Positions 14,669-15,933 of a stretch of DNA of 20,455 bases are shown here, one piece after another. The notes beneath the pieces are model-generated. The model did no database searches. It saw nothing but the letters and a program-made list of their open reading frames with translations, and had not been told where the DNA came from. This stretch comes from Myxococcota bacterium (lineage in GTDB: Bacteria > Myxococcota_A > SURF-8 > G963663525). Position 1 is the first letter of the stretch. Each line of letters starts with the position of its first letter. The translations under genes were made by a program, and so were the position numbers. The stretch covers positions 1 through 20,455 of the forward strand of contig CAXXVK010000037.1 in the NCBI GenBank assembly GCA_963676915.2, written 5' to 3'.

Positions 14669-14713
14669 ACGTGCCTTTTGTTGGAACAGAGGCCGTAGCG
14701 ACTGTGATTGAAG

Positions 14714-15646
14714 TCAAGCAAATTTTGGTTTCCACTCCTCCCTATTTTTAAGCATAGTATTCATGATAACGAGGAGTTTCCGCATAGATGCGATGACGGT
14801 GGTCATTTTGGGTTTACCCATAGTGACGTGCCTTTGATTGAAGGCTCGAATCACAGGGTTGTGCTGGATGGCGGACAAAGTGGGCATGTACAGTTGGGTG
14901 CGCACTTGCCTTCTTCCACCACCGGTCATGCGTTTGCCTTTGAACGCGCCGCTATCTCGATTGAACGGAGCGACGCCGACGAGAGCGGCGATTTGGCGCC
15001 GGTTGTATTCACCCAGTTCGGGCAAATCAACGATCAGGCAGTGAGCCGTGAGCGAACCGATACCGGGAACGGTCATGAGGCATCGAACCTTTTCGGAGAG
15101 CGATTCGTTGCGTTGAACGATGCTCCGTATCGCCTCCTCGATGCTTTCGACGTTCTTGTCCAGAGCTTTGATGATCGTTTTCAGACTGCGTGCGACAAGC
15201 TTGTCGTCGGCGTGTTCCACACGGTTTTTCTCTGCTGTTCGCATATCGATCAGTTGCCTTCGGCGAGCCGCAAGGGCTTTGAGTTTCAGACTCTCGGGAG
15301 TGATTTTTCGCATGTGACGGGGCTGGACCAGTGCGGCGTAGCGAGCGATGAGGTTGGCGTCGATGCGATCGGTTTTCGCTAAAAGTCCAAGAGACTGAGC
15401 GAAGGCGCGAATACGTCGTGGATTGACGACGGCCACATTGAAATTCCGTTTTTGCAGGAACTGGGCCAGGCGGTTTTCGTAGCCACCGGTGGATTCCATG
15501 GCGACCAGATCTGGCGCGGCGTTGCTGATTTTACGAAACGCTTTTTTCATTCCTGCTGGGGTGTACTCAAAAGTCTCGACGGTTCGGGACGAACCTACGG
15601 CCAGATCGAACGAAAGCTTGCTGATGTCGATTCCGACGGTTTCCAT
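14714..15646 (-). CDS. IS110-family DEDD recombinase/transposase (about 310 aa)
   Basis: VGIDISK (D), AMESTGGY (E), AKTDRIDA (DD), coiled coil, [18 protein letters not shown] (Tnp-domain Ser), [15 protein letters not shown] 15646 follows AAGGAAGG; GTG 15655 is an alternative start. Confidence 0.95.
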
Positions 15647-15664
15647 CTCGTTCACCCTTCCTTG

Positions 15665-15820
15665 CTCATGCGGGCTCATCGGTGTACAATGGCCCTAGCG
15701 ACTGTTCGGGCTTCCCGGACAAAACGGGCGGCGGATCCAGCTACACACGGGTTGAAAAACCCAAGGTCGGGACGATCTCGCCGCCCGATGCTCCCTGGGC
15801 GGCCGCCCAGGGAGCATCAC
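15665..15820 (-). ncRNA. Predicted IS110 bridge RNA: 5' hairpin, target-binding loop, donor-binding loop
   Basis: Hairpin 15787-15818. Stem 15725-15737/15774-15787 encloses CCCGACCT and TGTAG (target match). Downstream ACAGTCGCT and TACA match the donor. RNA ends are approximate. Confidence 0.85.
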
Positions 15821-15871
15821 CATTTTACCACAACAAACACCTGAAAACTGACACAATAAAGATCATACAAG

Positions 15872-15933
15872 GTCGGGCTAATTTTTAGCCCGACACCGTG
15901 GCATTGTCGGGCAAGAAATTTGCCCGACCTACG
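15872..15933. repeat. REP doublet family A, copy interrupted by IS110 (its GTAG foot is at 14695-14698)
   Basis: The reconstructed copy matches the reverse complement of 1855-1920 with 3 mismatches, all in the central spacer. Confidence 0.9.

Follow-up and report, generated by a model that had tools for sequence, protein, structure and literature searches.

The bridge RNA of the Escherichia coli insertion sequence IS621 consists of a 5′ hairpin, then a target-binding loop, then a donor-binding loop; in both loops, the 5′ side base-pairs with the bottom strand over 8–9 nt, and the 3′ side does so with the top strand over 4–7 nt (PMC11208160, PMC11208158). The natural target of IS621 is ATCAGGCCTAC, and its promoter is split across the joined ends of the element (PMC11208160). 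IS110 elements specific for repetitive extragenic palindromic (REP) sequences, among them IS621, ISPpu9 and ISPpu10, have already been published, as has the notion that REPs are safe landing sites (PMC1525189, PMC12288879, 10.64898/2026.03.19.712850). Here we describe an IS110-family insertion sequence of 1171 bp, without terminal inverted repeats, on the minus strand at positions 14699–15869 of a 20,455-nt stretch of contig CAXXVK010000037.1 from a Myxococcota bacterium (assembly GCA_963676915.2), hereafter the window. We are highly confident that it is, or was until recently, an active insertion sequence of the IS110 group, with a bridge-RNA-guided recombinase like that of IS621. The interpretation given in a first-pass annotation, made from the letters alone, is supported, but the biology is already known.

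On the plus strand the sequence reads CCGT-AG, then the element, then AG-GTCGGGCTAA. When positions 14699–15869 and one AG are deleted, what remains is a 66-nt REP doublet; compared by script and without gaps with the reverse complement of positions 1855–1920, it is identical at 63 of 66 positions, which reproduces the reconstruction offered in the first-pass annotation. The minus-strand sequence at 1855–1920 is an intact paralogous doublet and serves as the pre-insertion model. The occupied doublet lies at 15872–15933 (plus strand) and comprises two GTCGGG-loop-CCCGAC hairpins; its left GTAG foot is split by the insertion, and the remaining half of the foot is the CCGT at 14693–14696. At the right-end junction (14697–14698), the core dinucleotide reads CT on the minus strand (AG on the plus strand) and is followed there by AC, forming the CTAC that is the predicted pairing partner of the right target guide described below. 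The CT at the left-end junction (15870–15871) is preceded by the left target, GCCCGAC. Since this dinucleotide is repeated at both ends, the element could equally be written as 14697–15867. A scan for inverted pairs (seed 6, minimum length 10; 20 pairs listed) found no inverted repeat between the two termini and no subterminal inverted repeats in the element.

We searched the window's own 74-contig genome (G000) for the element at the DNA level. There are six full copies of 1171–1173 bp, on contigs C37, C53, C22, C43, C19 and C72, and two partial copies: C58 has a 343-bp 3′ fragment, and C60 a 55-bp relic of the left end. In the orientation of the transposase, all six full copies start TGTATGATC and finish CACAGTCG, with CT before and CT-AC after the element. 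The right junction reads ACAGTCG|CT-AC in every one of them; the left junction reads CCCGAC-CT|TGTATGA in five, whose left flank is a REP foot (xCCCGAC-CT), and CGGAC-CT in the C53 copy. The shared first and last bases uphold the proposal that both ends can be fixed to the base without terminal inverted repeats. Tabulating the flanks also bears out the proposed CT core at a REP foot, with CT on both sides in all six copies and a REP foot in five, the C53 copy lying outside REP DNA. The window copy stands between convergent genes, as first described, with a plus-strand frame ending at 14668 and a minus-strand frame ending at 15968, and five of the six insertions are just 3′ of gene ends. The further suggestion that the landing sites are harmless and intergenic holds for these five and fails for the C53 copy (G000:C53:153664-154834, L002), which interrupts a 217-codon open frame; neither half of that frame has a Pfam match. 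The C53 insertion is not inside a nearby IS200-like element, since that copy ends about 300 bp away. The genome has three identical IS200-like Y1 transposase genes, at C43:152790, C53:152887 and C53:182507.

Four sequencing runs were examined as assembled contigs. Runs X2 and X3, which come from a single sample in a study that differs from that of the probable source run (X1), each include one contig that joins position 14696 directly to position 15869, without the element. The comparison with related DNA lacking the insertion, which the first-pass annotation had put forward, yields contigs that join the two flanks 1 nt off the prediction, and confirms the ends of the element to within one base. 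The element-free contig of X3 is 4112 bp long and its flanks have 21 and 15 differences. In the same sample, a separate contig carries the element (58 differences over 1122 bp). In G001, a genome of the same genus, the REP family is present in many copies at up to 99% identity and the element is represented by one 40-bp match (90% identity, positions 109–148); no syntenic empty site was found in that genome, where the flanking genes are on different contigs (C3 and C1). The element-free allele also has a 10-nt insertion after position 14668, a little beyond the left gene's stop codon.

The recombinase gene occupies 14714–15646 on the minus strand and encodes 310 aa plus a stop codon. Its IS110 identity, asserted in the first-pass annotation, is confirmed by matches to Pfam PF01548 (DEDD_Tnp_IS110; 2e-25) and PF02371 (Transposase_20; 6e-18), to NCBIfam NF033542 (‘IS110 family RNA-guided transposase’; 218.1 bits, where the cut-off is 140), and to the solved structures of ISCro4 (1e-35) and IS621 (3e-30). 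The motifs GID, mEsT and KTDriD, which contain D7, E51, D93 and D96, align to D11, E60, D102 and D105 of IS621, and the catalytic serine, S232, falls in a DSG at residues 231–233, opposite the ESG of IS621 (S241, G242). An alternative, longer frame in the list of open reading frames (321 aa, ATG at 15679) overlaps the donor loop of the RNA. We placed the start at 15646 because the donor loop passes the ATG at 15679, and because four orthologues have their aligned start codons no more than a few bases from this position; the upstream ATG is probably not the real start. We also considered the IS1111 group, whose elements have subterminal inverted repeats and a long right end that carries the guide RNA, downstream of the gene. 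The element does not fit that group: its non-coding right end is only 15 nt, the predicted RNA is upstream of the gene, and subterminal inverted repeats are absent.

The 190 nt from the left end to the listed ATG fold more stably than shuffled sequences (z = -5.4). We assign the structured part of a predicted bridge RNA to 15653–15818 (minus strand), an interval that denotes this structured part and not mapped transcript ends; it would contain a 5′ hairpin, a target-loop module and a donor-loop module. The 5′ stem-loop is a perfect 16+16 palindrome (15787–15818), and the hairpins of the orthologues, which differ in sequence, are each self-complementary as judged by eye. In the target loop, a 12-bp stem around GUCCCGACCU is followed by a small stem-loop and by GUAG. 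The putative left target guide (LTG), GUCCCGACCU, lies at 15764–15773 (minus strand), and its final 8 nt, CCCGACCU, are the left half of the target plus the core (CCCGAC+CT), in the same sense as the top strand. The putative right target guide (RTG; 15739–15744, minus strand) contains GUAG at 15741–15744, which is CT-AC reverse-complemented; the CU after it stands where IS621 has its handshake guide. In the donor loop, the putative left donor guide (LDG), ACAGUCGCU, at 15697–15705 (minus strand), equals the final 7 nt of the element plus CT. A 9-bp stem-loop separates it from the CAAG at 15661–15664 of the putative right donor guide (RDG; 15659–15664, minus strand), which is the reverse complement of the left-end CT-TG and is followed by GA, again at the handshake position. 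Thus, all four guide segments (LTG, 8 nt; RTG, 4 nt; LDG, 9 nt; RDG, 4 nt) match on the strands expected from the rule in PMC11208160. After the RTG comes a C and after the RDG a G, and these two bases can pair with donor position 7 (G) and target position 7 (C), respectively; such non-cognate ‘handshake’ pairing has been described for IS621 (PMC11208158). These matches suggest that copies land at REP feet because the element's own guide RNA spells out the REP foot of the host.

To represent the structure, an RNAalifold model of the 201-nt left ends was tried and dropped, because it paired the LDG with the RDG region and misaligned the variable 5′ hairpins. It was replaced by a structure drawn by hand following the IS621 module order. 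Across five orthologues, 96% of 150 cells are paired in the hand-drawn structure, compared with 28–52% when the partners are slid, and four pairs have changes on both sides. The two Rfam matches obtained were set aside, both being treated as chance or as effects of a palindrome. The match to mir-341 falls on the palindrome of the 5′ hairpin. The match to sX15, at window positions 15650–15796 on the plus strand (30 bits, below the gathering score of 55; E 0.0098), is antisense to the predicted RNA. sX15 is a small RNA of Xanthomonadaceae, and the match raises the question of whether sX15 itself sits in an IS110-type left end.

Among 41 genomes (G000 and its 40 nearest relatives), the element has matches in seven, including G000. 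Full orthologous elements are present in four relatives: G003 (eight copies), G005 (eight copies, seven of them analysed), G007 and G009 (one copy each). In G001 and G020 there are only short matches, of 40 and 99 bp. All of the orthologues finish AACAGTCG|CT and start CT|TGTATTAT. The left flank in G003 is GCCCGAC-CT at seven of eight loci and TCCCGAC-CT at one, and the right flank is CTAC at all loci but one (L033, CTTC). In G005 (7/7 loci) and G009 the flanks read GCCCATC-CT-AC, the foot of a different palindromic repeat. Aligned left ends have CCCGACCT in the target loop of G000 and G003, compared with CCCATCCT in G005 and G009, so that guide and target pair as CCCGAC with CCCGAC in the former two genomes and as CCCAUCCU (CCCAUC) with CCCATC-CT in the latter two. 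GTAG, the donor sequence ACAGTCGC(T/A) and CAAG are constant in all five genomes (as RNA, ACAGUCGC(U/A)...CAAG). The first-pass annotation had supposed that the donor is conserved while the target guide is retuned to the host; this is what the orthologues show, with CCCGACCU here, CCCAUCCU in relatives and the same donor loop throughout.

We extended the comparison with a covariance model (R1) built from the five orthologue sequences and searched against 33 loci, made up of 30 of 53 loci fetched by protein from named genomes together with L019, L020 and L026. The 30 protein-derived loci encode transposases 32–51% identical to the window recombinase. Of 28 matches, we kept the 24 that were full-length, each ending 13–61 nt before the gene; partial matches at L052, L054 and L026 and one weak minus-strand match were dropped. 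Sharing of k-mers upstream and downstream of the gene had also been tried as a test for distant orthologues and was mostly uninformative, and the covariance model was used instead. The LDG 7-mer occurs exactly at the 3′ end of the element in 22 of the 24 distant orthologues, and in 19 of those 22 the first four bases of the flank are the reverse complement of the RTG. Most of these RTG/flank matches are not independent, since they are CTAC with GUAG. Covarying pairs of other kinds include CTTC/GAAG at L055, CTGA/UCAG at L049, CTCG/CGAG at L047 and L078, and CTTG/CAAG at L051. When the left guide was slid along the upstream DNA, exact 8-mer matches were found for L047, L078 and L071. In the Neisseria elements (L058, L059 and L057), guide and flank mostly co-vary, CCCAACCA occurring with CCCAAC-CT and TCCGACCA with TCCGAC-CT; the exception is L057, which has a TCCGAC guide at a CCCAAC flank.

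These comparisons bear on the possibility that the recombinase itself reads REP DNA, with the matches between left end and flanks being coincidental or merely regulatory. This was the working view before 2024, and REP targeting was described without reference to an RNA (PMC1525189). Against it stand the four separate guide segments that match on the expected strands, the two-base switch in the loop from GA to AU that tracks the switch of target in two genomes, and the RTG variants that track the flanks at six non-CTAC loci. Recognition by protein alone is already disfavoured by these observations, and we consider it extremely improbable.

The targets belong to an abundant family. There are 170 GTCGGG-loop-CCCGAC units in the genome, 68 with GTAG before and 50 with CTAC after, and the stem of the REP palindrome is 7 bp. 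Unoccupied CCCGACCTAC sites number 133, where base composition predicts 11.5, and 118 of these sites are at a GTCGGG...CCCGAC hairpin; on both counts, insertion at REP feet is not a chance observation. The target repeat is short, palindromic, high-copy and mostly extragenic, with GTAG at one end. Two genes for REP-associated tyrosine transposases (RAYTs), of 178 aa each, are present at C62:108678-109214 and C1:39324-39860 (NF047646, 177 and 190 bits; cut-off 80). The gene on C62 is flanked by inverted GTCGGGTGATTTCACCCGAC-type REPs. Given the tags and the RAYT genes, we identify the target repeat as a GTAG-tagged REP in the sense of PMC3733652, from which the concept is taken and which has 24 GTAG families. 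These RAYT-associated REPs (PMC3733652, NF047646) match the target repeat, not the element. As a side observation, the REP doublet belongs to a larger, composite repeat of about 100 bp, formed by the doublet and a tail of about 36 bp (window 15870–15969 and 1855–1920); this repeat occurs at many places in G001 at 92–99% identity, and within the first 126 bp of C58 there is a near-identical copy with the same tail.

The hairpins themselves might contribute to target choice. For ISPpu10, a requirement for a hairpin has been reported (bioRxiv 10.64898/2026.03.19.712850), and by extension RNA pairing would be needed here while the REP hairpin 5′ of the core would be read as a DNA structure, so that REP feet would be chosen for both sequence and shape. 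Five of the six copies, the C58 fragment and the C60 relic are all immediately 3′ of a GTCGGG-loop-CCCGAC hairpin, as this would require. Because 118 of the 133 free perfect sites are also at hairpins, the two modes of targeting are hard to separate by location. The C53 copy has no comparable hairpin, however, and three of the eight copies in G003 (L022, L035 and L033) follow GCCCGAC-CT without a GTCGGG or GCCGGG arm in the 45 nt upstream; in addition, IS621 can be reprogrammed to non-REP targets (PMC11208160). We therefore regard an added requirement for the hairpin as rather unlikely, and favour targeting by the guide RNA.

Under guide-RNA targeting, we propose the following cycle, in which circle formation, transcription and catalysis are predicted steps. 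The element would excise as a circle with the joined ends ACAGTCG-CT-TGTATGA. When the ends are joined in silico, a candidate -35 box, TTGACT, is placed 17 nt from a candidate -10 box, TATGAT, and this spacing is kept in all five orthologues. The former, at 14712–14717 (minus strand), is in the right end and overlaps the TGA stop codon; the latter, at 15862–15867 (minus strand), is among the first bases of the left end. A consensus scan found no consensus promoter upstream of the RNA in the integrated copy. The predicted junction promoter fits the published circle-dependent promoter of IS621. The circle junction would thereby assemble a sigma-70 promoter that drives an RNA of about 170–200 nt from the left end and then the 310-aa DEDD/Ser recombinase. 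The donor loop (ACAGUCGCU...CAAG) would pair with both strands of the circle junction, and the target loop (CCCGACCU...GUAG) would do the same at CCCGAC-CT-AC, which forms the foot of the GTAG-tagged, RAYT-associated REP hairpins in this host. Strand exchange at the CT core would then insert the element without a real duplication.

Several observations weigh against the reading of the element as an active, RNA-guided insertion sequence. Among the listed sequencing runs no RNA run holds the locus, so the bridge RNA is a sequence prediction only, and no Rfam family reaches its gathering score in the element. The donor loop has an outer stem of just 4 bp, with which a local hairpin competes. The sequencing runs were available as contigs, so a circle junction could not show. 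The element-free contig skips 1172 bases compared with 1173 predicted, which makes the allele 1 nt longer than a scarless site; we cannot tell whether the extra base at the REP foot is a polymorphism or a scar. The C53 copy, one of six, is outside any REP: its left flank, in non-REP DNA, is AACGGAC-CT, the left guide is matched at only 6/8 positions, and the guides match only GGAC-CT-AC. The sole copy in G007 has the guide TCCGACCT (RNA UCCGACCU) next to the flank ATCGACCT, with two of eight positions mismatched. Among distant orthologues the test of the left guide is noisy: of 19 loci with a TGTAT start, nine have no more than two mismatches in eight and ten have three to six. This noise is partly due to mis-registered fixed columns and a crude rule, and other differences may be genuine mismatches. 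The 8-mer match at L071, ATCCGACC, is one base short of the CT core and out of register. Finally, two of the six copies in G000 are frameshifted, those on C22 (+2 nt) and C72 (+1 nt).

The frameshifts, together with the truncated C58 copy and the 55-bp C60 relic, are what would be expected if the element were dead, its old and immobile copies marking ancient insertions. Such a history is difficult to reconcile with the six copies having only seven variable alignment columns in 1171 bp, with identical ends and RNA region, or with the 310-aa frame being intact in four of them. Moreover, G001 has the REP family but no copy of the element, bar its one short match, and a related strain lacks the element at the very same site. 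We conclude that a dead relic is very unlikely, and that recent activity better describes the element. The extra nucleotides in the frameshifted copies (C22:8627-9799 and C72:55444-56615) are near element positions 949 and 928 and leave frames of 265 and 277 codons. Either genuine decay or homopolymer errors in the assembly could account for them.

The right guide invites a more speculative reading, in which this IS110 clade is a specialist parasite of the GTAG tag on RAYT-type REPs. The RTG, GUAG, is the tag sequence itself; with the tag's AG as the CT core, the element would cut GT^AG and part the REP hairpin from its tag. All five close orthologues keep GUAG, as do 18 of the 24 distant ones (host labels include Caldithrix, Desulfobacterales and Neisseria), and the reverse complement of the IS621 target also starts GTAG. 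As part of the same reading, only the left guide would drift, following the REP stem of the host (CCCGAC, CCCATC, CCCACC, TCCGAC, CCCAAC). The reading is tentative, and we think it possible but less likely than not. If it were true, it would be the REP/RAYT systems, not the recombinase, that set the near-universal preference for CT-AC, and every insertion would disable one REP as a RAYT substrate. Among the matches listed in our literature search, judged mainly by titles and abstracts, none linked bridge RNAs to the GTAG tag.

The element shares most of its described features with IS621. Both proteins have the same two domains and catalytic motifs; both elements have a CT core followed by AC, and hence the same logic of a 4-nt RTG (PMC11208160); both have an RNA in the left end with the order 5′ hairpin, target loop and donor loop (PMC11208160, PMC11208158), predicted in the case of the window element; and both insert in REPs. 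IS621 has a promoter split across its joined ends, and one is predicted for the window element. The IS621 donor cited in the first-pass annotation is given as the donor DNA oligonucleotide ACAGTATCTTGTAT in PMC13396178, and agrees with the positions dA6, dT7, dC8-dT9, dT10 and dT12 named in PMC11208158; the joined ends here, ACAGTCG-CT-TGTAT, are the same at 12 of 14 positions. The two elements are nevertheless distant (phmmer 3e-30). The left target in the window is CCCGAC compared with ATCAGGC, the protein is 310 aa compared with 326, and the right end is 15 nt with a -35 box overlapping the stop codon. No DNA match to the element was found in 5,426 E. coli genomes (blastn ‘distant’), and for that reason the comparison with IS621 rests on published text and an alignment to the PDB protein.

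ISPpu9 and ISPpu10 of Pseudomonas putida KT2440 resemble the element in having multiple identical copies at one REP position, in intergenic ‘safe’ sites (PMC1525189, PMC12288879, 10.64898/2026.03.19.712850). The RNA of ISPpu10, however, is said to lack a 5′ stem-loop and to need a hairpin at the target (10.64898/2026.03.19.712850), whereas the window element, compared by description only, carries a 5′ hairpin of 16 perfect base pairs and has inserted at least once at a non-hairpin site. ISCro4 (PDB 9t56) is the best relative with a solved structure (1e-35 over residues 3–301), a comparison that concerns the protein only. The element, or its clade, might already be in the supplementary tables of PMC11208160 among the natural targets and orthologue lists.

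The element leaves knowledge of the mechanism unchanged. Its value is as a natural case, resolved in full, of bridge-RNA targeting beyond the Proteobacteria-centred model systems, and as a resource that combines exact ends, an empty-site model within the genome, an element-free allele, 133 spare targets, and relatives in which a two-base change of the guide matches a different REP family. With a 310-aa protein and a 15-nt right end, it is also a candidate compact bridge recombinase. For annotation, it accounts for a repeated 1.17-kb insertion at REP feet.

Some fragments of the element were also seen. At the start of C58 (C58:1-480, L103), a REP doublet and CT-ACTTGCT are directly joined to the element's final 343 bp (at 99% identity), whose end reads ACAGTCG|CT-ACTTGCTTTC. 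A simple internal deletion is ruled out, since the right flank of the target, CTACTTGCT, stands on both sides; the fragment could be an illegitimate exchange between empty and occupied alleles, or an assembly chimera at the contig start. The relic at C60:183797-183851 is 95% identical to the left end and follows the REP foot CCCGAC-AT, not CCCGAC-CT. Two further matches, at G007:C1:826109-826193 (L026) and G001:C1:1005216-1005255 (L019), correspond only to the target-loop portion of the RNA, at 82–90% identity, with no transposase match nearby, and may be relics or free-standing loop modules.

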